A stretch of 20,720 nt of DNA from an uncultured virus (IMG/VR IMGVR_UViG_3300006358_000001) (lineage: Duplodnaviria; Heunggongvirae; Uroviricota; Caudoviricetes). The stretch is from the IMG/VR virus record IMGVR_UViG_3300006358_000001; one strand, 5' to 3'. The position numbers and the translations under genes were made by a program. Under the pieces are notes generated by a model that saw only the letters and a list, made by a program, of their open reading frames with translations, was not told where the DNA came from and made no database searches. Positions 346 to 20,293 of the stretch are shown piece by piece (position 1 is the first letter of the stretch; every line of letters starts with the position of its first letter).

Positions 346-557
346 CACTTGTTCTCCCACTTGCTTTCGACGGAGTCATAGACCCACTCACCCGTGCGAT
401 AGATGCCGTCCTTCTCATCCTGATACTTCTGGATGCGAAGCTGCATGTCCTTGTAGTCCTCGAACTCCCAGTAGCCGGGACCGAACTGGCTGTAGTCCGG
501 CGGATCAGGATCGTCGATCCACGGCGCGAAGTTCGGCTCGCTGCGAATGCGGCTCAT
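345..557 (-). CDS. Small acidic/aromatic hypothetical protein (70 aa)
   Basis: ORF track; start overlaps the portal stop (ATGA) and stop overlaps the next start (TGATG). Confidence 0.75.
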   Translation of the reverse strand: MSRIRSEPNFAPWIDDPDPPDYSQFGPGYWEFEDYKDMQLRIQKYQDEKDGIYRTGEWVYDSVESKWENK

Positions 558-3500
558 AGCTTGATGCCCTTCTTCTTCGCGAGATTGATCAGGCTCTTCT
601 CGTAATCGGAGTCACGCTCCTTCGGCATCACGCCCATTTGCTCCCACAAATCTTTCTCAGGCCACCACCATGTCGCCTGCGCACCTGCGGGTGTGAGCCG
701 ATAGCCGTCTTCCTTGTTCAGCTTGTCGATTGCGCCGTGCATGATCTCGGTGATCCACTTGCGCTGAGCACCCGATGCAGGTTGCTCGTTGAGCTTGCCC
801 TTGTCGTACAGCACGAGCCGCTCAGCAGCGCCGACCAGTTCGCTCTTCTTGTACTTCTCGCCGGGCTTCTTCGTCTCCTGCCACTTCTTGTACGCCTTCT
901 CGTGACGCGCCTCGACTTCGTATGCACGCGCGATCAATTCCTTCTTCGATAGTTCGCCATCACCACCGTGAGCGAGCACGCGCTGCATGCGCTCAAGCTG
1001 TCCGCTCATGTCATCGTTGACGCCTGTGCCAGTGAGACGTCCCCACGAGCGCATCAGCCACAAGTCCATCGTGATCGGATTAAAGTTGCCGTTGAGGTTC
1101 TGATAGAAGCCGTTGCCGATCTTCGGTCCGAGATACGCGGAGCCGAGCACCATGTCGTCCTTGTTGGTCGCGCCGGGCTCGACGCCCTTCTTCGTGCCAA
1201 GGATCACGCCAGTGCGCTTCTCCAGATCACGCGCCGTCATCTCCTCGTTGAAGAACTCGATGGTCTTATCGATCCCGATCTGATCGATCATCTTGTTGAC
1301 CTTGATCAGGTTGTTCGAGATGTTCGGATCAGCAGCGCTGATGTCGAGCGGGAAGCGACCGTTGCCCGGCGACTTCTCTTCCTGTTCGAGATAGCTGGTG
1401 TAAGCCTGATCGGCGAGATCGGCAGAACGGGAAACGATCTCACCCTGCGATGTGATCGCGAGCGCCACCGTGTACATGAACTTCTGACGCGGATCGTCGG
1501 CCATGCCGGGATATATCTTCTCGGCAACGCTCATCGCCCGCTTCATCGTGTCGTCGTACCAATACTCGCCACCCTTGCCGTTGATCAGCGCATCGCGCAT
1601 TTCAAGCGCAACGAGATCGGTCAGGAATTTGTCGCTCTCCGGCGTGCGGTTCTCGACGGTCAATTCCTTGACGCCGAACTTCTCTTCGATGATCCCCTGC
1701 GCACGCTTCATGATCATCTTCGCGGCGTCGCCGACGTTGACCTCGCCACGCTTGATGTTCGGATGCTCCGACGTCAGCGACATCGATGTCAGTCGGTATC
1801 CCGGCGTGTCGGTTCGCTGGCTCCAATGATCGCTGACACCCTTCCAGATGTCTTTTGCTCCCGGTACTTGGGATTCTGCAATGACGCTTTCGTATACTTC
1901 TCGGCTGCGGTCTCTTTGCTGTCGCTCCGTGCCGTCTTCTGGGAGTGTTTCTGGTGGGACGAATTCTCCGTGTCCCTTCTCGTAGTCGATGGGGTTGTCA
2001 TTGCCGTACCTCTCTGCAGCCTTGTTGATCGCATCGAAGCTCTCGCCGTCGAGATCAGCGACGTAGACTGTAGCGCCGCCACCTTCCTTCGGCACGATGG
2101 TATGGAATGCGAGTCCGTCCTTCAGCAGGTTGCGATGGATCGCAGCGAGTTCACCCTCCGCCTCGAAGTGTGCGAGCACCGACTTGCCGCCGTCCTCCTG
2201 CTTGAACACCAGCACCTGCTTCTGATCGAAGATGTGGCCCTTCATCACAGCAGCGAGCTTGATCTCTTCGTATGATCCCTGCGCCGTGGTCATCAGCGAA
2301 TTCTCTGCACCGTCTGCCCACGCGCCGAGAATGTTGACGTCCTTCGCGCTCTTCAGCCCGACCTTCTCGTTGATGTCGTCGGACACGACGCGCATCTTCT
2401 TCTGCTGTGCGGAGCCCAACTCGCGCACGGCTTCCTTGAAGTCGAGGTTGGTCTTCACGCTGGGCGATACGAACTCCGTGCTCCTGCCACCCTTGCTCGC
2501 GTTCTGCAGCTTGCTGTGGATGACGGTCTCGCCCTTCTCGTTCTTGCTGGTGAACGTCGCGCCTTCCTTCGTCGCGGTGTACTGCGCACGCGCGTGCTGC
2601 AGATATCCCTCACGCGCAGCCTTCTGCGCTTTCCTCACAGCGGGATGAACCTTCTCGCCCTTCTTGTGCGGCGCTGGCTTGCCTTGCTTGCCGCCGCTGT
2701 ATCCACCGGGACCGAACTGGCCAGCGTTCTCAGGTTGACCGCGCGGGTGATCCTCTTCACGCCAGATCGCATCGAAGATGCGCTTCACCAGCCAGCCCTT
2801 GAAGCCTGCGTCCTCGCTGTCCTCCGCGAATTCCTCTTCCTCGATGCGCTCGCCGTTCTCATCGAAGCCCGGTGCTGGCAGCAACTTCTGTTCGTGCTGA
2901 TGCAGCGCGTGTTCTGCGATCATGTCTTCATCGATAGCGGACTCTTCCAGCGCAGCTTCGAGACCGGGATACGTTCCGTCCTCGATCAACTGGTTCTGCC
3001 GACCCTTCGCCAATGCATCAGGCGGAATCAATCCGGCGTTGACGTCGATCATGTTCGCCTGCGCCTTCTGCAAAGCAATCGACGCTTTCTCTGCATCGCT
3101 CTGCTGCCAGAGCGAAGTCCATTCGTAATAGATGTTCTTGTCGGTCTTCCCCAGTGCCGATTGCTGGATCACCCTGTCGAGCTTCTCCAGCGCTGGCGTC
3201 AGCCGCAATATCTGATCGGAGTGAATGCGGTCGTAGTAATTCTGCAGATCACTATCGCCAGTCGCATTCAATCCTGCAGGCGACATGCCAAGGAAGCGCG
3301 TCACCGGAATATCGGCAGCACCTGCCGCGATCTGCAGATACATCTGCAGTATCTCCGGCATGCCACGGAATTGCACTTGGATGCGCTGCCAGTCCTCTTC
3401 AGCGTCGATCAGGATGGAATTGACAATCGACTTCGCGACGTTCGCTTCCGTCATGCGCTTGACCATGCGCTGCGTGCCGTCGGTGGTCGAGAAGATTTCA

Positions 3501-4198
3501 GTGAGACCGGGAATCTTGATGACGTCGATCTTCGCTTCAGCGATCAACGTGGCCAAGCTGCCCATCACCGATCCCGCCGACGACACCGCGTCGTGGATCA
3601 CTTGCAACATCGGATCGCCCCAACCGAAGTTCGCCATCGGGTCAGGCGGATCGAGACCGATCAGGCGCACCATGCGCGATGGATGGATCATCACATCGCC
3701 GAACGTGCCGTTGGTGTCGTTGATCTTGTAGTGCTCCGGCATGCCGTAGTACGGCGACGAGATGTCCTTGATGATTTCCTGCGGCGCGAGTTGATGCGGT
3801 GCGAACACGTGCACGAACTTCAGCCCGTCTTTCTTCACCGTCTTCGGATCAAGCTCGCTCGCCATGTCACCATCAACGCCGATCAGCATGCACGAGCCGC
3901 CATAGAGCCGCGACTTGACCAGCGCATCCTGCAGCTTCTGCTGTATCAGCAGCCGCTTCTCCGTCTCTTCGAGTAGCTCGATCTGATTCTGTTCGGCCTG
4001 CCACGCACGCCATTCGCGCACGCTGTCCATTGCAGGGATCGCGATTGCCTTGCGTGCGATCCAGTCGGATTGATACGACGCTTCGAGTTGCTCGCGCGTC
4101 CACAGTTGCTTGACGTACCTGAACCCAGTCGACTTATCCCGGCCAGCGATGCCGAGCCCGGACAGGAAGTTCGTGAACGTGTCGAACATGTAAGCCAT
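554..4198 (-). CDS. Phage portal protein (DUF1073/HI1409-like) with long C-terminal extension
   Basis: N-terminal ~420 aa carry DUF1073-type motifs (YQSDWIARKAIAIPA, SRLYGGS, IHPSRMVR, AGAADIPVTRFLGMSPAGLNATGDSDLQNYYD); downstream of TerL; then an acidic linker and ~750 extra aa. Confidence 0.88.
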   Translation of the reverse strand: MAYMFDTFTNFLSGLGIAGRDKSTGFRYVKQLWTREQLEASYQSDWIARKAIAIPAMDSVREWRAWQAEQNQIELLEETEKRLLIQQKLQDALVKSRLYGGSCMLIGVDGDMASELDPKTVKKDGLKFVHVFAPHQLAPQEIIKDISSPYYGMPEHYKINDTNGTFGDVMIHPSRMVRLIGLDPPDPMANFGWGDPMLQVIHDAVSSAGSVMGSLATLIAEAKIDVIKIPGLTEIFSTTDGTQRMVKRMTEANVAKSIVNSILIDAEEDWQRIQVQFRGMPEILQMYLQIAAGAADIPVTRFLGMSPAGLNATGDSDLQNYYDRIHSDQILRLTPALEKLDRVIQQSALGKTDKNIYYEWTSLWQQSDAEKASIALQKAQANMIDVNAGLIPPDALAKGRQNQLIEDGTYPGLEAALEESAIDEDMIAEHALHQHEQKLLPAPGFDENGERIEEEEFAEDSEDAGFKGWLVKRIFDAIWREEDHPRGQPENAGQFGPGGYSGGKQGKPAPHKKGEKVHPAVRKAQKAAREGYLQHARAQYTATKEGATFTSKNEKGETVIHSKLQNASKGGRSTEFVSPSVKTNLDFKEAVRELGSAQQKKMRVVSDDINEKVGLKSAKDVNILGAWADGAENSLMTTAQGSYEEIKLAAVMKGHIFDQKQVLVFKQEDGGKSVLAHFEAEGELAAIHRNLLKDGLAFHTIVPKEGGGATVYVADLDGESFDAINKAAERYGNDNPIDYEKGHGEFVPPETLPEDGTERQQRDRSREVYESVIAESQVPGAKDIWKGVSDHWSQRTDTPGYRLTSMSLTSEHPNIKRGEVNVGDAAKMIMKRAQGIIEEKFGVKELTVENRTPESDKFLTDLVALEMRDALINGKGGEYWYDDTMKRAMSVAEKIYPGMADDPRQKFMYTVALAITSQGEIVSRSADLADQAYTSYLEQEEKSPGNGRFPLDISAADPNISNNLIKVNKMIDQIGIDKTIEFFNEEMTARDLEKRTGVILGTKKGVEPGATNKDDMVLGSAYLGPKIGNGFYQNLNGNFNPITMDLWLMRSWGRLTGTGVNDDMSGQLERMQRVLAHGGDGELSKKELIARAYEVEARHEKAYKKWQETKKPGEKYKKSELVGAAERLVLYDKGKLNEQPASGAQRKWITEIMHGAIDKLNKEDGYRLTPAGAQATWWWPEKDLWEQMGVMPKERDSDYEKSLINLAKKKGIKL

Positions 4199-5295: not shown

Positions 5296-5490
5296 TCAGT
5301 GCACGCTCTGCATCTCACGCTCAACAGCGGCCACAATTTCGTGGCGCTGCAGAATTGTCTCTCTGCCTTCAAGCATGGCTTCAGCATCGAAGATCAAATC
5401 CCACCATGCGTGCTGCGGTCCGACACGTGCAGCAATCCCTCGCATGATCTCCACCGCTCGAACGAATTGCCGATGATCCATCATGCTCAC
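5296..5490 (-). CDS. Hypothetical protein (~62-64 aa)
   Basis: ORF track 5296..5496; GTG at 5490 overlaps the TerL stop; alternative ATG at 5484. Confidence 0.6.
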   Translation of the reverse strand: MSMMDHRQFVRAVEIMRGIAARVGPQHAWWDLIFDAEAMLEGRETILQRHEIVAAVEREMQSVH

Positions 5491-6953
5491 ACCCACGACA
5501 GCGAGCGATCATATGTGCCGACGGATGCGGCGAGCTTGTTGAACGCGCCCGCTGTTGCATCGACCTGATCGTCGTTCCTGCCATTCGGGAATTCTTCGTG
5601 CTCCTGCAGGAATTCCCTATTCCATCCTGCGGCCTTGATCGAGACCTGTCCAGCCTGAACCTGCGCTGCATAGGGTTCGGCGCGAACTTCTTTCGACCCG
5701 GTCACCTTGTCGAGCTTCACCGTGAAGCCCTTGAACTTGCGTGCCGACGCTTCGGCTGACTCCTTGCCGCCCGATCCCGGCTCTTGCTCGAACCAGATTT
5801 CATATCGAGGGCACATCGCCTTGTCTGCGATGGCTGCTTGCATGATGCGGTCGTCGCGTTCGAGCGATCCCCACTGGCCACGGATCACATCCTCGACGAC
5901 GGTCGTGCCGTTCTTCATCTCGTGCACCAGCGATGCGCAAGTGTAGTCGCCGTCGCCTTGCGATGATGCCTTGTCCACGTAGCGCACGCTGCGCTTGATC
6001 TCTCGTCGATCCACGGAAGCGATGACGTTGAAGCGCTCCGTCGGAAACATGTCGCCGCCTGCAGCGATGGGCGACTGCTGATAGATCGATTGCCAGCCCG
6101 ACAGCGTGAGCACCTTCTTGCGCTCCATCAGGAATTCGACTGGCTTCAATCTGGGGAAGAGCGCCTGACCTTTCTTGCGATACTCCTCATCGACCTCAGC
6201 GATGGCGGGATAGCGCAGCACCTTCGTCTTCGGAAACATCTCGATCCATCTGCCGAGCGGATCGTCGAGGTGCCAGCGTGTCATGATCATCAGGATGCCA
6301 GCCTTGTCGCTGAACCTGCCGAAGAAGTCGTCGGTCATCCACGCCCATGTCTTATCGCGGATTGTCTTCGACATCGCTTCGGCGCGACCCTTCATCGGAT
6401 CGTCGATGATGCCGAGATCGAGACCGAGCCCGTTGATCTGGCCCATCACCGTGGTGTTTCGGAAGCTGCCGTTCTTGCCGACGTATTCAAGCAGCGAGCT
6501 ATTGCGTATCCATCGAGCGCTATCGGTCGAGGTGTTCGAGGTGTTCAGCCGCGTCTCAGGGAATGCGACCCGGTACGCGTAGCTGTCGAACAGGCGCTGC
6601 AGCGAGAGGTTCACGCGCACGCCGAGATCGTCAGAGTAGCTGCCGAAGATCGTCTTGAGATTTGGATTCTTGCCAGCGCACCACGCGGTGAAGTCGGTCA
6701 CGGTCTCTGTCTTGCCGTGCTGCGGCGGTGCCATCATCACGAGCGCAGGACGTTTGCCTGCGACCATGTCCTCGTAGAATTGCTGGAGATGTCGAGCGGC
6801 ATCGCGTTGCCACCAGCCCTTGATCATCGTCGGATGCATCAGCTTGCGGAATTCCCAGAAGTTATTCTGTGCACCGAGAGCCGCAGCACCCTCAAACACT
6901 TTCACATCTGGAGCAAAGAATTCCTCCGTCCTCTCCGGAGCGAATTGAACCAC
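5487..6953 (-). CDS. terL: Terminase large subunit
   Basis: Walker A MAPPQHGKT, Walker B LGIIDDP, motif III IMTRWH, YQQSP linker, nuclease motifs YVDKA, EQEPGSGG and DDQVDA. Confidence 0.95.
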   Translation of the reverse strand: MVQFAPERTEEFFAPDVKVFEGAAALGAQNNFWEFRKLMHPTMIKGWWQRDAARHLQQFYEDMVAGKRPALVMMAPPQHGKTETVTDFTAWCAGKNPNLKTIFGSYSDDLGVRVNLSLQRLFDSYAYRVAFPETRLNTSNTSTDSARWIRNSSLLEYVGKNGSFRNTTVMGQINGLGLDLGIIDDPMKGRAEAMSKTIRDKTWAWMTDDFFGRFSDKAGILMIMTRWHLDDPLGRWIEMFPKTKVLRYPAIAEVDEEYRKKGQALFPRLKPVEFLMERKKVLTLSGWQSIYQQSPIAAGGDMFPTERFNVIASVDRREIKRSVRYVDKASSQGDGDYTCASLVHEMKNGTTVVEDVIRGQWGSLERDDRIMQAAIADKAMCPRYEIWFEQEPGSGGKESAEASARKFKGFTVKLDKVTGSKEVRAEPYAAQVQAGQVSIKAAGWNREFLQEHEEFPNGRNDDQVDATAGAFNKLAASVGTYDRSLSWV

Positions 6954-7797: not shown

Positions 7798-8274
7798 CTA
7801 TGCGGTTTGCAGGAGACCCGGTGCCAGTTCGACGCGTCCCAACGCATCTAGCAGAACAATCTCACGCTGGCGAGATGTCTGCCCTTGGTAGATGCCGCGC
7901 TGTCCGTCGAGTAGTCCGCCGACGACCTGCACACCCTGTCCCTGTTTGAAGCGTGACTTCTTCAGGTGGATGAGCCCGTCGGAATGTTCTTGTTGTTTCA
8001 TTCGATCAACCCAGCCCTTCGGAAGATAGGCCGGGCGTTCTCCGTTCATGATCAGGTTCGAGACGCCGAACGTCGAGAGGATGGCGTGCCACTGGTGCTC
8101 GATCCAGACGAACACGTAGCGAGGAAACAGCCAGCGTGCTTCGTGGACTTTGCGACCGCGCACGACGCGCACGATCTTCTCTCGCGGCGCGTAGCAGGAG
8201 AAGCCTTGTCGCTCAAGGTGCCGGATCGCGCGGTGTTCGCTGGATGGCTGAGCTTGCACGACGGACCAGAACAA
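7798..8274 (-). CDS. NusG/RfaH-family transcription antitermination factor
   Basis: NGN domain (WSVVQAQPSSE, LFPRYVFV, STFGVSNLI) plus KOW motif (FKQGQGVQVVGGLLDG); likely TTG start at 8274 with GGAGG 6 nt upstream (ORF track extends to 8307). Confidence 0.9.
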   Translation of the reverse strand: MFWSVVQAQPSSEHRAIRHLERQGFSCYAPREKIVRVVRGRKVHEARWLFPRYVFVWIEHQWHAILSTFGVSNLIMNGERPAYLPKGWVDRMKQQEHSDGLIHLKKSRFKQGQGVQVVGGLLDGQRGIYQGQTSRQREIVLLDALGRVELAPGLLQTA

Positions 8275-8305
8275 CGGCGACCTCCCTGATTCGCAGTTGC
8301 CGCGC

Positions 8306-8336
8306 ATTCTGCGGAGCGCTCTGCCGCAGCGTCAAG
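8306..8336 (-). promoter_or_regulatory. Candidate leftward promoter cTTGACG-N18-CAGAAT for the NusG-like gene
   Basis: -35 at 8335-8330, -10 at 8311-8306; same -35 hexamer and spacing as the candidate at 7764. Confidence 0.45.
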
Positions 8337-8524: not shown

Positions 8525-8912
8525 CTCGGCCCGGTCATCTACCGGGTCGGTGGCGGCAGGCCTCGCACCCTGATCGCCCGCACGGGACCCGGATCAATCC
8601 CGACAGGCAACGTCCTGCAAGAAAGTCCGGTCGCTCTTGAGAGGGCGTGGGCACGGAATGAGCAGGACATCTTCCTCCCCCCACGCTGGCTTGAGACGGT
8701 GATTTCGCGGGACGCCTCATTGGCCAGCCACGCGGCGGAAACGGTCCAGACTGCGGGCCATCGTGACCTGAATAGACAGGCAGCAAACACAACAAAGACC
8801 ACTCGCTTACGAGCGAGTGCATCTGAGCACGGCGAAGACGTAACCGGGACAACGCAGTTTGCAATGTCAGCCCGCATCGTTCGCGCCGTGTCGAGATGCA
8901 CTTCCGCATCGC
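8525..8912 (+). ncRNA. Candidate ~390-nt structured leader RNA or ncRNA
   Basis: No credible CDS between the promoter and the first RBS; successive stems 8526-8550, 8612-8668, 8685-8728, 8767-8780, 8800-8819 (UACG loop) and 8817-8901. Confidence 0.5.
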
Positions 8913-8933
8913 GCCATCAACGGAGCAACCTAC

Positions 8934-9158
8934 ATGGCACGCAAATATTTCACCCTCATCGAACGCGACCCGATCTCGAAGACATGGTCGCCGCAGTTCG
9001 GCGACTACGACCGCAACGTCGTCGTCGAGGAAGGCCAGAGCATGCACGACCAGATCGGCTTCACGATCTCGAAGGGCACCAAGTTCAAGATCATCTCCAC
9101 CACCGGCAAGCAGGCGGACATCAATGCCGCCGTCGCTGCCATCAACTCCCGCATCTGA
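8934..9158 (+). CDS. Hypothetical early protein (74 aa, MARKYFTLIE...)
   Basis: 3' part of ORF 8859..9158; GGAGCAACC before ATG 8934. Confidence 0.8.
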   Translation: MARKYFTLIERDPISKTWSPQFGDYDRNVVVEEGQSMHDQIGFTISKGTKFKIISTTGKQADINAAVAAINSRI

Positions 9159-9169
9159 AAGGAAACCCC

Positions 9170-9937
9170 ATGCGTACCATCTCGAACCTCATCAACAGCA
9201 AAGCGCTCTTCGTCATCAACCACTCTGGCGGCAAGGACAGCCAAGCCATGATGATCAAGATGCTTGAGATCATCCCGGCCAGCCAGATGCTGGTCGTCCA
9301 CGCCTCACTCGGCGACGTCGAGTGGAAGGGCGCACTTGAGCTTGCTGAGAAGCAGGCTCGCGACGCTGGCGTCGAGTTCATCGTCGCTCGCGCAGAGAAG
9401 AGCTTCCTCGACATGGTCGAGAAGCGCTTCGCGGATCGGCCCGGCGTGCCCTCGTGGCCGTCGGCGAAGTATCGTCAGTGCACCAGCGACCTGAAGCGCA
9501 ACCCGATTGAGCGCGACATCCGCCGCTACATGAAAGCACGCGGCCTCACGCTGGTCGTGTCGTGCACCGGCATCCGCGCAGCGGAGAGCAACAGCCGCTC
9601 GAAGCTGAACCCGTTCAAGCTCAGCGAGAAGAACTCGAAGGCCGGTCGCGAATGGTACGAGTGGTGCCCGATCTTCAACCTCTCCACCGCTGAAGTGTTC
9701 GCGACCATCAAGGCTGCGGGTCAGCAGCCCCACGAGGCATACGCTCTGGGTAACGAGCGCCTGTCTTGCGTGTTCTGCATCATGGGCAGCAAGGGCGACC
9801 TTGCTCTCGGTGCGAAGCACAACCCTGAACTCTTCGCTCGCTACGTCGAACTCGAAGAGCGCACTGGCTACACGATGCACATGAGCCAGCGCAGCCTGAC
9901 CGATCTGGTCAATGACGCGCAGCAGTTCGCTGCTTAA
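9170..9937 (+). CDS. Phosphoadenosine phosphosulfate (PAPS) reductase family protein
   Basis: PP-loop SGGKDS, RQCTSDLKRNPI, GIRAAESxxR, PIFNLSTAEVF, RLSCVFC; ATG 9170 after AAGGAAACCCC. Confidence 0.88.
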   Translation: MRTISNLINSKALFVINHSGGKDSQAMMIKMLEIIPASQMLVVHASLGDVEWKGALELAEKQARDAGVEFIVARAEKSFLDMVEKRFADRPGVPSWPSAKYRQCTSDLKRNPIERDIRRYMKARGLTLVVSCTGIRAAESNSRSKLNPFKLSEKNSKAGREWYEWCPIFNLSTAEVFATIKAAGQQPHEAYALGNERLSCVFCIMGSKGDLALGAKHNPELFARYVELEERTGYTMHMSQRSLTDLVNDAQQFAA

Positions 9938-10499: not shown

Positions 10500-10565
10500 G
10501 CGACTTCTTCGACACTGCGCATCTCGGTGCGCAGCACGAAGCATTCCGCTTCAGGAGCAACCACC

Positions 10566-12164
10566 ATGACTGAACTTCCCATCTCTGAACTGAAGACGCG
10601 TGGCCAGATCGTTGCCGACGATGTGTCGGCTCTTCTCCGCGCTCGAAACCCGCTGATCTGGATCGTCTCTCGCGAAGAAGCTCGCGTCGAGGCGCTCTTG
10701 ATCGAAGCCGCTGCCGCCGCTGCCTACGTGCCTCGCATGTGGGACGCTGCGCAGGGCATCACCGACATCTCCGGCAAGCAGATCGCGGAGATGCGCGACC
10801 AAGTGGACGTCGCTGCAGCGCTCACCATGATCGGTGCTCGTGCGCAGGGTCGCGAACGCGGCGCGTGGATCATGCGCGATCTGCCGGTGTGGCTCGATGG
10901 TGCCATCGGCATCGTCACGCTGCGCCAACTGCGCAACCTCGCTCGCTCGCTTCCGGGCGCTCCACGTGAGAGTGCGCAGGCGATCATCGTGATCTCTCCG
11001 AAGGCTGAGGTGCCGCCGGAGCTTGCCGGTCATGCCACGGTCATCGATTGGCCGATGCCTGATCGTGCGGAGATCGCGGCGATCCTCGACGCTGCCATCG
11101 AAGGCCTGCCCGACGACCTGCGCGACAGCGCAGCGCCGAACGGCCAGCGAGAGGCGGCGATTGATGCCGCTGTCGGTCTCTCCGGTGAAGAGGCGCAGGC
11201 TTGCTACGCTCGCTCGCTGGTGCAGCTTCGCAAGATCGACCCGGTGCTGGTCGCATCGGAGAAGAAGCGCGTCGTGTCTCGCGAGCGCGTCGTCGAATGG
11301 ATCGAGCCGATGAAAGGCGGACTCGATGCGGTCGGCGGTCTTGAGAACCTGAAGGGCTGGCTGCAGGTGCGCAAGTCGGCCTACAGCCCGGCGGCGCGTG
11401 CATACGGTCTGCCCGCACCGAAGGGCATCTTGCTGGTCGGCATTCCCGGCACCGGCAAGTCGCTCACCGCGAAGGCGGTCTCCACGGCGTGGCAGTGCCC
11501 GCTGCTGAAGGTCGATCTCGGTGCACTGAAGTCGAAGTTCGTCGGCGACAGTGAAGCGAACCTGCGGCGGCTCTTCAAATTGATCGAGGCGATTGGACGA
11601 TGCGTCGTCTGGTTCGACGAGATCGAGAAGGCGCTGCAGGGCGCGACGTCAGGCTCTGCTGACGGCGGCGTCTCCAGCGATGCGCTGGGTGCGGTGCTGA
11701 ACTGGATGCAGGAGCGGCAGGGTGAAGCGTTCGTCATCGCGACGGCGAACGATGCATCTGCGCTGCCGCCTGAGTTGCTGCGCAAGGGCCGGTTCGACGA
11801 ACTGTGGTTCGTTGATCTGCCGACCAAGGCGGAGCGTGAGGCGGTGCTGTCCGCAGCGCTGCGCCAGTACAATCGCGGCGACGTTGCCGTGAACGCTGCC
11901 AAGGTGGCGAAGGCCACTGAAGGCTTCACTGGCTCCGAGATCGCGGCCCTCGTCCCTGATGCGCTGTTCACGGCGTTCAATGACGGTGCTCGCGAGATCG
12001 TCACCGAAGACCTCTGCGCTGCTGCCGGATCGGTGGTGCCGCTGAGCGTGACAGCGCCTGAGAAGATCAAGGCGCTGCGTGAATGGGGCGCTGGCCGGGC
12101 ACGTCCCGCGTCTGCACCCGAAGTCGCTGCGAAGGCTGGCAAGGTGCGAGCCCTCGATCTCTAA
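10566..12164 (+). CDS. AAA+ ATPase, Ycf46-like (degenerate N-terminal domain plus one intact AAA domain)
   Basis: Walker A GIPGTGKS, Walker B VVWFDEIEK, sensor ATAN, SRH LPPELLRKGRFDE; GGAGCAACC before ATG 10566. Confidence 0.9.
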   Translation: MTELPISELKTRGQIVADDVSALLRARNPLIWIVSREEARVEALLIEAAAAAAYVPRMWDAAQGITDISGKQIAEMRDQVDVAAALTMIGARAQGRERGAWIMRDLPVWLDGAIGIVTLRQLRNLARSLPGAPRESAQAIIVISPKAEVPPELAGHATVIDWPMPDRAEIAAILDAAIEGLPDDLRDSAAPNGQREAAIDAAVGLSGEEAQACYARSLVQLRKIDPVLVASEKKRVVSRERVVEWIEPMKGGLDAVGGLENLKGWLQVRKSAYSPAARAYGLPAPKGILLVGIPGTGKSLTAKAVSTAWQCPLLKVDLGALKSKFVGDSEANLRRLFKLIEAIGRCVVWFDEIEKALQGATSGSADGGVSSDALGAVLNWMQERQGEAFVIATANDASALPPELLRKGRFDELWFVDLPTKAEREAVLSAALRQYNRGDVAVNAAKVAKATEGFTGSEIAALVPDALFTAFNDGAREIVTEDLCAAAGSVVPLSVTAPEKIKALREWGAGRARPASAPEVAAKAGKVRALDL

Positions 12165-15333: not shown

Positions 15334-16197
15334 ATGTCACGGATACCAACTGAGTCCCGCATCTTCGCGGACCAATACATGCGCGAGCTTCGCAAACGCG
15401 AGGCTCAGAATTCCAACCACCTCTCACCCGGCACGAAGAACTGGACCGACGCGATGCTCAACGTGTTCGATCAGGTCGGCAACATGGGCAACCCGATCAA
15501 GCGAGCGAAGCGCATCCGCGAGATCGGCAGCTATCTCAACAGCGCCATCGACACCGCCGACGGCTTCGCTCACTTCGTTCTCGACTACGGCGGCTCGAAC
15601 CGCGCCGCCGGTTTACTTCTCGCGACGCTTGGCGTGGGCGAGCATCCGATCCAAGGCGTGCACGAAGACGGCGTCAACATCCTGCATCACTTCATCACGT
15701 CACGACGTGGCGGCACGGTGCGTGCGTGCGCTGATCTGAACCTCGCATACATCTCGAAGCACGCTCTGGCGCGAATGCACGAGCGTGGCCTCAACATGAG
15801 TGCCGATGCCATCACTGGCGTGCTCTCCTGCATCGGCGTGATGGGGATCATCCTCCGCAACGCCAAGCAACATGCCGACGGTGGCATGTGCCTGCGCTTC
15901 GACGACACCTTGATCGTCGGCTCGCTGAAGAACGCGGTCAAGGATGTCGGCGGCGGCAAGGGAGTCGAGTGCGCACTGTTCGACGTTCGCACCGCGCTGC
16001 CTGCCGACGAGGTGAAGGACTATCGGCAGGTGCATCAAGGCCAACAGGCCACGCTCGCCGTCAATCAATGGCTGCAGCATCGCTCGATGGCGACGCCGTG
16101 GCTCGACAAGCTGGCCGCGTCGATCCCGGCGCTGCCACGACGCGAAGACGACTACACCCTACAGGCCGCACGCGCGGCAATGGAGCAACCCACATGA
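15334..16197 (+). CDS. Hypothetical protein (287 aa)
   Basis: GGAGCAACA before ATG 15334, in frame with ORF 15184..16197; contains ISKHALARMHERG. Confidence 0.8.
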   Translation: MSRIPTESRIFADQYMRELRKREAQNSNHLSPGTKNWTDAMLNVFDQVGNMGNPIKRAKRIREIGSYLNSAIDTADGFAHFVLDYGGSNRAAGLLLATLGVGEHPIQGVHEDGVNILHHFITSRRGGTVRACADLNLAYISKHALARMHERGLNMSADAITGVLSCIGVMGIILRNAKQHADGGMCLRFDDTLIVGSLKNAVKDVGGGKGVECALFDVRTALPADEVKDYRQVHQGQQATLAVNQWLQHRSMATPWLDKLAASIPALPRREDDYTLQAARAAMEQPT

Positions 16198-16688
16198 CTG
16201 AGAACCACTGCGGCACGTGCACTGCGTGCTGCCGGGTCTTCGCTATCGCGGAGATGCCGGAGAAGAAGGCTGGCCAATGGTGCCAGCACTGCGCTGTCGG
16301 CGAGGGCTGCAAGGTCTACGCTGAACGGCCACGGACCTGCGTCGAGTTCGAGTGCCTCTGGCTGCTGAGCCAGAAGCGCAGCGATCCACGCGAGCAACTC
16401 GCACCGGAGCTTCGGCCTGACCGATGCAAGGTGGTGTTCTCGCCATCGACCGACGACACCATCATGGCGGCAACGCTGATGCCGAACGCGCCAGCGGCGC
16501 ACCATCGCCGCGACGTGCAGGCATTGATCGGCACGATGGTGCGCGGCGGCATGCGCGTGGTGGTCGGCACACCAGCCGCGACGACGCGGATGATGTTCGA
16601 CCGCGACGGCAATCACGAAGTCTACATGACCGAACCTGATGAGGACGGCATGCAATGGTCAATTCCAACCGAAGGAGCAACCCAATGA
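16194..16688 (+). CDS. CxxCxxCC (YkgJ-like zinc/iron-chelating) family protein
   Basis: CGTCTACC...WCQHC...GCKVYAERPRTCVEFECLWL; GGAGCAACC RBS. Confidence 0.82.
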   Translation: MTENHCGTCTACCRVFAIAEMPEKKAGQWCQHCAVGEGCKVYAERPRTCVEFECLWLLSQKRSDPREQLAPELRPDRCKVVFSPSTDDTIMAATLMPNAPAAHHRRDVQALIGTMVRGGMRVVVGTPAATTRMMFDRDGNHEVYMTEPDEDGMQWSIPTEGATQ

Positions 16689-17739: not shown

Positions 17740-17923
17740 TCCTCACACGCGTTTGCCCCTGCAATTCTCGGAGTCAAGTTTCCCAAATCCGCGGGTTCGA
17801 GCCTTGTGCTGCAGCGTTTGCTGCACGCGCATCGCTCGACTCTGCGATTTGGCGGAAGGTCGTTTGCTACACTTCACTCGCTCGCTCATGAGGCGAGCTT
17901 CACACGCTCAAAGGAGCAACCCG

Positions 17924-18421
17924 ATGGCGAGAGCCAAGAAGATCACCAGCATCGAGCACCTCGATACGCTGGCGAAGAGACTGCGAGCCAGACTGAAGCG
18001 CACGATGAACGCGCTCGACAAGCTGGAGAAGCAGAAGGCCCGGCTGCTGAAAGCAGCGAAGGCACCGACGGTGAAGACGGTCACGTTCGAGCCGATGTTC
18101 GAGGATGCGGTGCCGGTCTCCCCTCCGGCATACCCAACTGTTGACAGCGAGACCACGCTTGGGGCTTTGCCGCCGGTCAACATAGCACGCGCCGGTCTCG
18201 CTGGCAGTCACGACGATCTCGGCATCCCTGACTTCCTGCGCAGGCAGGGCAGGACCGATGCCGACGTCGCTGCAGCCGAAGCGATCAAGGTCGAACAGGC
18301 TGCGGTCGCCAAGGCGAAGGCGTCTGGCCGCATCGCGAAGATGAAGGCGAAGAAGTCTGGTGAGACTCGCAAGATGCCGTTGACAGGCAAGGCGGCTCTG
18401 GCACTGATCAACGAAGGCTGA
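17924..18421 (+). CDS. Basic coiled-coil protein with an internal FtsZ C-terminal-peptide-like motif (165 aa)
   Basis: GGAGCAACC before ATG 17924; DDLGIPDFLRRQ at aa 97-108 after a Pro-rich linker. Confidence 0.8.
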   Translation: MARAKKITSIEHLDTLAKRLRARLKRTMNALDKLEKQKARLLKAAKAPTVKTVTFEPMFEDAVPVSPPAYPTVDSETTLGALPPVNIARAGLAGSHDDLGIPDFLRRQGRTDADVAAAEAIKVEQAAVAKAKASGRIAKMKAKKSGETRKMPLTGKAALALINEG

Positions 18422-18442
18422 TCCCGTCATCGCATCAACCAA

Positions 18443-18472
18443 CCCGGCAGCATCCCGCTGCCGGGCTTTCTT
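18443..18472 (+). terminator. Probable intrinsic terminator
   Basis: CCCGGCAGC-ATCCC-GCTGCCGGG followed by CTTTCTT. Confidence 0.6.
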
Positions 18473-18487
18473 ACGTGGAGCAACCAA

Positions 18488-19890: not shown

Positions 19891-20051
19891 CCAGAGAGGA
19901 AGCCGACAAGATCGCTGACTTGATAACAGAGCTTGTCGAGGCAGCGACGCAAGCGGTGCGAGACGGAGACATCACCTTGGCTGAAGCGAAGCTGCAGCAG
20001 GCCCACGATATCGCACTGACACTCCCACAGAAGAAAGAGCCACTACAATGA
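19887..20051 (+). CDS. Small helical hypothetical protein (54 aa)
   Basis: Translated by hand: MTREEADKIADLITELVEAATQAVRDGDITLAEAKLQQAHDIALTLPQKKEPLQ; ATGA overlaps at both ends. Confidence 0.65.
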   Translation: MTREEADKIADLITELVEAATQAVRDGDITLAEAKLQQAHDIALTLPQKKEPLQ

Positions 20052-20293
20052 AGACCATCATCATCGCCATCATCTTCGCCTGCATCAGCAACGTCGTGCT
20101 GGCGCAGGTGATCAACCGCACCTATCAGGACTCGATGGGTCGAGAAGTTGGCCGATCATCGACCGACGCTCGCGGTGCGACGACCTACTCCGACAACATG
20201 GGTCGTAACACCGGGCGCTCCAGCGAGAGCAACGGCGTCACCACGTTCTACAACAGCAAGGGGCAACAGACCGGAAGGAGCACCCGCAAGTGA
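20048..20293 (+). CDS. Secreted small protein with three internal repeats (81 aa)
   Basis: Signal peptide MKTIIIAIIFACISNVVLA; repeats TYQDSMGREVGRS, TYSDNMGRNTGRS, TFYNSKGQQTGRS. Confidence 0.75.
   Translation: MKTIIIAIIFACISNVVLAQVINRTYQDSMGREVGRSSTDARGATTYSDNMGRNTGRSSESNGVTTFYNSKGQQTGRSTRK

Follow-up and report, generated by a model that had tools for sequence, protein, structure and literature searches.

What is a peptide that resembles the C-terminal tail of the bacterial division protein FtsZ doing inside a phage protein? The question is raised by a 20,720-nucleotide (nt) stretch of phage DNA, here called the window, from an uncultured virus of the Caudoviricetes (IMG/VR record IMGVR_UViG_3300006358_000001). 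An open reading frame (ORF) on its plus strand (17924-18421, stop codon included) translates into P0001, a protein of 165 amino acids (aa), of which residues 97-108 read DDLGIPDFLRRQ. The original prediction for this locus, made from the letters of the window, had placed an FtsZ-tail-like motif at nt 18212-18247, which is exactly where translation of the frame puts it; the presence of the motif in P0001 is a real observation and is confirmed. The same prediction called P0001 an early protein, which it presumably is.

P0001 belongs to a large phage protein family that is uncharacterised and new. A word-indexed search recovered 171 homologues at E ≤ 0.01, and an exhaustive search 277 representative clusters at E ≤ 1e-3. 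Family members are almost all metagenomic, with 68 loci in IMG/VR viral contigs, and tblastn against 50,697 GenBank phage records found no family match. The gene occurs in two of 185,579 species genomes, as prophage copies in a Bradyrhizobium sp. and in an Eremiobacterota metagenome-assembled genome (MAG); one unpublished genome (G042) underlies none of the claims made here. FtsA is present in both host genomes.

The evidence that carries the likeness comes from profile comparison. When the family alignment was compared by hhalign with an alignment of the last 100 residues of 29 alphaproteobacterial FtsZ proteins, the two matched with 92.9% probability (E 3.8e-7, 20 columns, score 44.9). The controls fell far below this value: the family alignment against an FtsA alignment gave a probability of 0.05%, the best of 100 column-shuffled tail alignments (92 with a readable top row) reached 0.2% and a score of 11.4, and reversed FtsZ tails scored 9.4. 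The match extends beyond I-P-x-F-L to about 12 positions, upstream acidic residues and a leucine included, and DDLGIPDFLRRQ conforms to the consensus acidic-x-L-acidic-[IV]-P-x-[FY]-L-[RK]-[RK]. It is also placed as in FtsZ, at the end of a long, variable and disordered linker.

Searches at the genome scale gave a similar picture. When the 9.7-Mb Bradyrhizobium genome was searched in six frames with the family profile, nothing but the prophage copy (3e-51) and the tail of FtsZ (E 0.002) came up at E ≤ 10. In the same genome, a degenerate DNA pattern that encodes IPxFL[RKQN]R matched eight times, with the motif in frame in six cases and F read for L in the other two; three of the eight matches lie in real ORFs, namely two FtsZ paralogues and the prophage protein. 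Other matches, in an antisense low-complexity frame and in two frames of 21-25 codons, were set aside as non-genes. Across 919 kb comprising the window and 70 related loci, a six-frame regular-expression scan located the motif in 47 family ORFs and elsewhere in three frames of 28-35 codons. At the level of sequence comparison, the likeness of the family motif to the FtsZ tail is statistically solid and specific. The original prediction of an FtsZ C-terminal peptide likeness is upheld by the hhalign probability of 92.9%, by controls at or below 0.2%, and by a genome search that finds FtsZ alone besides the prophage copy.

To characterise the tails themselves we examined FtsZ genes of 41 alphaproteobacterial genomes and of 31 from the phylum of the Eremiobacterota host; 30 and 29 tails were read from these, respectively (59 together). 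I-P-x-F is found in 28 of the 30 alphaproteobacterial tails, which typically read ...LDIPAFLRRQAN, with alanine at the x position in 25 of the 30; the tail of the Bradyrhizobium host is DDHLDIPAFLRRQAN. Bradyrhizobium sp. (two genome loci) encodes two FtsZ paralogues, one of 611 aa ending in IPAFLRRQAN and one of 418 aa ending in IPVFLNRKAN. The tail is far more variable in the Eremiobacterota-phylum sample than in Alphaproteobacteria, and several tails there (among L135-L144) are without I-P-x-F-L, for example EPAILRRNR and YYESAYRRRSR. In E. coli, the tail is DYLDIPAFLRKQAD; its stated partners are ZipA, FtsA, MinC, ZapD, ClpX and SlmA, and I374 and L378 are reported to be critical for binding ZipA, FtsA, MinC and SlmA (PMC4117426).

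Architecture and conservation of the P0001 family

The protein divides into the following elements, for which confidence is given as predicted local distance difference test (pLDDT) scores of an AlphaFold2 model.

17924-18421, plus strand: coding sequence of P0001 (165 aa, stop codon included)
17951-18061, plus strand: N-terminal basic helix, aa 10-46, with hydrophobic residues at 3-4 spacing (pLDDT >90; R19, L24, R26, K33, L34 and R40 conserved)
18062-18211, plus strand: Pro-rich disordered linker, aa 47-96 (pLDDT about 60, no secondary structure; alignment columns mostly gaps)
18212-18247, plus strand: FtsZ-tail-like motif DDLGIPDFLRRQ, aa 97-108 (conservation, profile match to FtsZ tails, controls)
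18257-18358, plus strand: long Lys/Ala-rich helix, aa 112-145 (pLDDT >90)
18359-18418, plus strand: C-terminal loop and short helix (156-164), aa 146-165, with GETRKMPLTGKAALALI, the most conserved element of the family (G146, M151, P152, G155, A157, A158 and I162 invariant in 50 sequences)

The model, built on 99 homologues, has no compact fold (mean pLDDT 79, predicted template modelling score 0.33), and it agrees with the anatomy first proposed, of a basic N-terminal helix, a Pro-rich disordered linker and a Lys/Ala-rich C-terminal helix. The disordered Pro-rich stretch spans residues 47-100 in the model, and among homologues the linker before the motif is highly variable in both length and sequence. 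Residues 103-105 (D-F-L), within the motif, form a helical turn. The N-terminal helix is presumed from its heptad pattern to be a coiled-coil or oligomerisation element. At the other end, the constant length of helix 112-145 holds the motif 44-58 residues ahead of the C-terminal element.

Database searches placed P0001 in no known family. It matches no Pfam family at E ≤ 10, and so has no match to the tubulin-like GTPase domain (PF00091 and PF12327). Among its 99 aligned members, Pfam matches were mostly weak and to coiled-coil or helical regions, and no tubulin or FtsZ family is among the 25 most-matched families listed of 154 at E ≤ 10. PHROGs returned two non-significant rows for P0001 (E 0.09 and 0.25), and a PDB sequence search gave coiled-coil entries and, without significance (E 0.3), the FtsZ tail of Pseudomonas. 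Foldseek found no match to the model in the PDB, and the ESM Atlas search yielded no usable match. Residues 130-165 have a helix-loop-helix shape in the model that is reminiscent of the helix-extended-loop-helix (SAP/HeH-type) DNA-binding motif; such an assignment found no support, either among the 25 most-matched Pfam families or by Foldseek.

Conservation was counted over 249 retrieved family proteins. Of these, 242 have MP[LVI]xG[KR], the signature of the C-terminal element, and 230 of the 242 carry [ILVM]Px[FYW][LMIF] 44-58 residues before it. Within these 230 proteins with the motif core, the first position is I in 219, V in 7, M in 2 and L in 2, followed by P (230), a free x position, F (223) and L (228). 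Position +5 is R in 130, Q in 51, K in 36 and D in 6, and +6 is R in 223; upstream, 169 have D at -3 and 110 have L at -2. Viewed along P0001, 50 diverse members show no variation at I101, P102 and L105 and at least 90% conservation at F104 and R107; in 99 sequences, I101, P102 and L105 are still conserved to at least 90%.

The motif had been expected to be the conservation peak among homologues. It is indeed a peak, but one of two, and the C-terminal KMPLxGKAAL is the stronger. The latter sits in a block that reads GRIAKMKAKxSGExxKMPLxGKAALxxI and that is retained in distant homologues with an altered motif (xPxFLDRR, IPEWMKR, IPAIFRR or IPAALKR). In the distant members L044, L048, P0209 and P0249 the upstream motif has decayed, and it is degenerate in P0221 as well. 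Among the family variants, IPAIFRR, IPAALKR, V-P and L-P resemble the variants IPAILRR, V-P and L-P seen in FtsZ tails.

The exhaustive search and the related loci further revealed that residues ~95-165, comprising the motif, the helix and KMPLxGKAAL, are joined to varied other parts. This module stands behind DUF3102 and a coiled coil in three proteins (P0210, P0240 and P0225; 40.5 bits for DUF3102 in P0210), ahead of DUF3102 in another (L043:7950-8897, plus strand; 29.1 bits, cut-off 24.4), and, in L041, ahead of a region rich in Lys, Pro and Ala and of DUF3489 (30.7 bits, cut-off 29.5). It also lies within a Lys/Ala-rich protein (L069) and in the middle of a 1733-aa ORF of a viral contig (L050:5652-10850, plus strand), which reads IPDFLRV ... 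SMPLTGRAALEAI, has no Pfam family and may encode a giant virion or injected protein. Proteins of 72-94 aa consist of the module alone, and the order of helix, linker and motif recurs in fused forms. The occurrence of the module with DUF3102 in both orders (L043 and P0210) is a clear case of domain shuffling. P0210 also has a weak UPF0137 match (17.4 bits, under the cut-off of 34), and DUF3102 itself is uncharacterised. A tblastn search of plasmids found no family match, and P0210 matched plasmids through its DUF3102 part only.

Modelled from one sequence only, the DUF3489 portion of L041 comprises three helices plus a beta hairpin (pLDDT 80-88). Of the 50 PDB structures that match this model best, most are titled as winged-helix or DNA-binding regulators, with Z scores of 5.1-7.2 in the middling range; the best is DriD (Z 7.2, root-mean-square deviation 2.0, 57 residues aligned). 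PDB sequence searches with the DUF3102 and DUF3489 carriers found nothing. A targeted search with residues 95-165 for longer fused forms gave none at E ≤ 0.01, a weak null because the exhaustive search did show such forms. The motif and the C-terminal element are thus a portable module that travels with DNA-binding-type partners or coiled coils.

One of the two sequenced hosts offers a view of the motif beside the FtsZ of the same genome. In the Eremiobacterota MAG, the prophage gene and ftsZ/ftsA are on one 594-kb contig; the host FtsZ ends in ...DDIDVPAFLRYRG (V-P-A-F-L) and the prophage protein carries ...KDDLTVPTFLQRA (V-P-T-F-L). V-P occurs in 6 of the 29 FtsZ tails of the Eremiobacterota-phylum sample, three of them almost identical in their ending to that of this host, in none of the 30 alphaproteobacterial tails, and in 7 of the 230 family members. 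The nearest relative of the prophage protein (P0229, 65% identical) has I-P. As a single case, the V-P match fits a motif that would track the host FtsZ.

Possible roles of the FtsZ-like peptide

The original interpretation, in which the peptide is a decoy for FtsZ anchors or tethers phage DNA to the divisome, is partly supported. It had missed three features described above: the fixed spacing between the motif and a more conserved basic C-terminal element, the fusion of this portable pair to DNA-binding-type domains in other phages, and the degenerate motif of a few distant members. The reading that we favour, tentatively and at somewhat short of even chances, is that P0001 is a mimic of the FtsZ tail that competes with FtsZ as a decoy at the receptors of that tail. 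The N-terminal helix, probably oligomeric, would display a copy of the host FtsZ tail on a floppy Pro-rich linker, in an arrangement of linker and peptide that would reproduce that of FtsZ. The peptide might then dock on the proteins that hold the host FtsZ tail, first of all FtsA in alphaproteobacterial hosts, and the resulting competition may loosen the Z ring from the membrane and delay or block division during infection. The basic C-terminal helix-loop-helix would be a second functional element at a fixed distance behind the peptide.

Several observations are consistent with such a decoy. Among them are the profile match to FtsZ tails, its specificity in the Bradyrhizobium genome, the disordered linker before the motif and the host-matched V-P. 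The family and FtsZ tails conserve matching positions (I, P, F, L and a basic one), which supports mimicry. Monomeric tail peptides bind weakly, at 20-81 uM against 0.21 uM for whole FtsZ (PMC4117426); display on a coiled coil would therefore make sense, since it could supply avidity. Over the 70 related loci, the family spans differing terminase backbones (phrog_38, phrog_2 and phrog_9), and no phage gene co-occurs with it constantly, the most frequent neighbour (ORF 20048-20293 of the window) being present at 13 of the 70. This spread without a constant phage neighbour points to a conserved host target.

A number of points weigh against the decoy. The motif is internal, with 57 residues after it, whereas in the FtsZ tails that were read, 2 to about 10 residues come after the motif where there is one; the D found at +5 in one subfamily (xPxFLDRR) is absent from all 59 FtsZ tails sampled; and at E ≤ 10 the family profile missed the FtsZ tail of the second host genome, the Eremiobacterota MAG. 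KMPLxGKAAL is more universally conserved than the FtsZ-like motif, and the degeneration of the latter in some distant members suggests that the core job of the family may not need it. The gene is found in prophages beside integrases and repressor-like regulators, where an unregulated division blocker would be costly. Finally, the host-matched V-P is one observation.

Some of these points, and the fused forms, bear on other explanations. The FtsZ-tail copy could serve as an address tag by which the protein, together with cargo such as phage or host DNA, is brought to membrane-bound FtsA or the divisome, which we regard as a rather unlikely role, if a serious candidate. An adaptor of this kind would account for a portable module that occurs on either side of DUF3102 and joined to DUF3489, the latter modelled as a winged helix in L041, and that has further carriers in the Lys/Ala-rich L069 and the 1733-aa ORF of L050. 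The fixed spacing of 44-58 residues ties the motif to the basic C-terminal element and not to the N-terminal helix, and occurrence in prophages fits a non-lethal role. Yet P0001 itself has no DNA-binding domain recognisable by Pfam, DNA binding by the C-terminal element would be a guess from its charge, and the winged-helix Z scores of 5-7 are middling and come from a single-sequence model. A broader formulation, to which we give about even chances, is that soil phages bolt an FtsZ-tail module onto coiled-coil, winged-helix and DUF3102 proteins and a giant ORF, which would link these proteins, perhaps along with DNA, to the FtsZ-tail receptors of the host, whose own FtsZ variant the motif would follow.

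A partner other than the FtsZ-tail receptors is about as doubtful as the adaptor. Here IPxFLRR and KMPLxGKAAL would jointly recognise something else, and the likeness to FtsZ would be convergent or an old relic. The fixed spacing of the two elements, the stronger conservation of the C-terminal one and its survival where the upstream motif decays would all follow, as would the internal position of the motif and the D at +5 that is foreign to the sampled FtsZ tails; nor does any fold or family match hint at a function. What speaks against such a bipartite module is that the match runs over about 12 positions and not just I-P-x-F-L, that FtsZ is the only other match in the whole Bradyrhizobium genome, that the family variants resemble FtsZ-tail variants, and that no constant phage partner gene was found among the loci. 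We think it very improbable that the motif engages ClpX and makes P0001 a short-lived phage protein or a means of saturating the protease. ClpX is reported among the interactors of the FtsZ tail in E. coli (PMC4117426), and a gene that has a terminator and a conserved control region to itself would suit a short-lived, tightly timed protein. No data point to proteolysis, however, and the strictly conserved I, P, F and L coincide with positions described as critical for ZipA, FtsA and MinC (PMC4117426). Most strongly disfavoured of all is a chance pattern or an ORF that is not a real gene. The sole trace in an RNA library is one 221-nt contig of a relative, possibly carried over from DNA; against this stand hundreds of homologues in which reading frame, start and ribosome-binding site are conserved, a motif that is near invariant in the family, and shuffled, reversed and unrelated-profile controls far below the real score.

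Control region and phage setting of the gene

The 180-nt intergenic region upstream of the gene (17743-17923) is better conserved than the coding sequence: by blastn it shares 81% nt identity with two related loci (L007 and L008) whose protein is only 48% identical. It is probably a promoter or operator common to this phage group. The elements around the gene are as follows.

17810-17825, plus strand: inverted repeat TGCAGC-GTTT-GCTGCA, a candidate operator upstream of the conserved block (partly conserved in two upstream alignments)
17844-17873, plus strand: conserved non-coding block, a candidate promoter or operator (30 nt, almost unchanged across 7 phages; weak fold, -9.5 kcal/mol)
17910-17916, plus strand: ribosome-binding site AAAGGAG, 7 nt 5' of the ATG (kept in 9 of 10 aligned upstream regions)
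18443-18475, plus strand: intrinsic-terminator-like hairpin, 22 nt past the stop codon (9-bp stem with 8 G-C pairs, then CTTTCTT)

A scan of the upstream region with an E. coli-type sigma-70 consensus found no promoter. The block 17844-17873 resembles an alphaproteobacterial housekeeping promoter with a short spacer, and its conservation together with this consensus suggests a possible promoter function. A structured-RNA reading of the region was set aside, with no Rfam family, a weak consensus fold, no covariation in the invariant block and no tRNA; the lack of covariation and the weak fold argue that the block is a DNA signal and not an RNA structure. With its own terminator, the gene looks like an autonomous unit. 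The 221-nt contig mentioned above, from a leaf-litter metatranscriptome library, is about 92% identical to 18261-18465, an interval that takes in the 3' half of the gene as well as the stem of the terminator; because of this level of identity it comes from a relative, and it is no proof of transcription, since DNA carry-over is possible.

Elsewhere in the window the following genes were recognised.

554-4198, minus strand: portal protein (PF06381, E 2e-96)
5487-6953, minus strand: large terminase
7798-8307, minus strand: NusG-like antiterminator
8699-9937, plus strand: PAPS-reductase-like gene (PAPS-reductase-domain protein)
10527-12164, plus strand: FtsH-like AAA ATPase (PF00004 plus AAA_lid_3; phrog_8638, E 2e-173)
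16197-16688, plus strand: Cys-rich small protein (CxxCxxCC ... CxxC), matching phrog_9155, which has no known function

The genes at 8699-9937 and 10527-12164 mark the point of divergence between structural genes on the minus strand and a block of small genes on the plus strand. The Cys-rich protein is the second most frequent neighbour of the family gene and is encoded upstream of it in 12 of the 70 related loci. In many related contigs the family gene closes a block with Xre-like regulators or integrases and opposes endolysin and tail-fibre genes oncoming from the other direction. DNA near-identical to the window is contained in rhizosphere and soil metagenome runs of several studies; runs that share few of its words do not enter into this statement on habitat.

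Comparison with known systems

Interference of phages with division is known. Were a virus to copy the FtsZ tail, it would intervene on the receptor side of the interface, opposite to the textbook inhibitors, at the hub through which FtsA, MinC and the other partners read FtsZ. If the mimicry is true, viruses that imitate a short linear motif of the bacterial cytoskeleton would be described for the first time. It would also provide a natural competitor peptide, tuned by evolution, for the interface between the FtsZ tail and its receptors, a long-discussed antibacterial target, and the host range could be read from phage sequence, with the motif expected to track the FtsZ variant of the host. 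The family is large (277 representative clusters), unannotated and easily testable in laboratory alphaproteobacteria. Our literature search, with subscription journals outside its coverage, found no description of a phage protein that copies the FtsZ tail; the papers on the tail sequence concern E. coli FtsZ.

Set beside the FtsZ tail itself, P0001 shares the consensus over about 12 positions, the place at the end of a Pro-rich, variable and disordered linker, and the set of conserved residues (I, P, F, L and a basic one). It differs in that its motif comes without a GTPase domain, is not C-terminal (57 conserved residues follow) and has a free x position, which in alphaproteobacterial FtsZ is mostly A. 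Apart from the motif, no homology between P0001 and FtsZ could be detected.

Lambda Kil, T7 Gp0.4, Qin DicB, Rac KilR and CbtA are, like P0001, small and accessory proteins of phages; they disturb the Z ring in the course of infection or on induction, as is proposed here for P0001. They are reported to act on FtsZ itself or via MinC or ZipA, and to our knowledge none of them has been described as copying the FtsZ tail. Judged by the absence of a PHROG or Pfam match and of a tblastn match among the 50,697 phage records, P0001 shows no sign of a sequence relation to these inhibitors. SlmA and MinC/MinD, regulators of the cell that seize the FtsZ tail from a surface (PMC4117426), share with the proposed action of P0001 the interface between the FtsZ tail and its receptors, but from the opposite side: SlmA and MinC bind the tail, whereas the phage protein would imitate the tail and bind its receptors. 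The fused forms of the module, with a winged helix or DUF3102, recall a DNA-bound factor that addresses the division machinery.

A further parallel in strategy lies with eukaryotic viruses, which copy short host docking peptides into disordered regions to hijack host hubs. In the present case the virus is a bacterial one and the system is the bacterial cytoskeleton, so that, if the mimicry is true, short-linear-motif mimicry, a hallmark of eukaryotic viruses, would operate in phages too.

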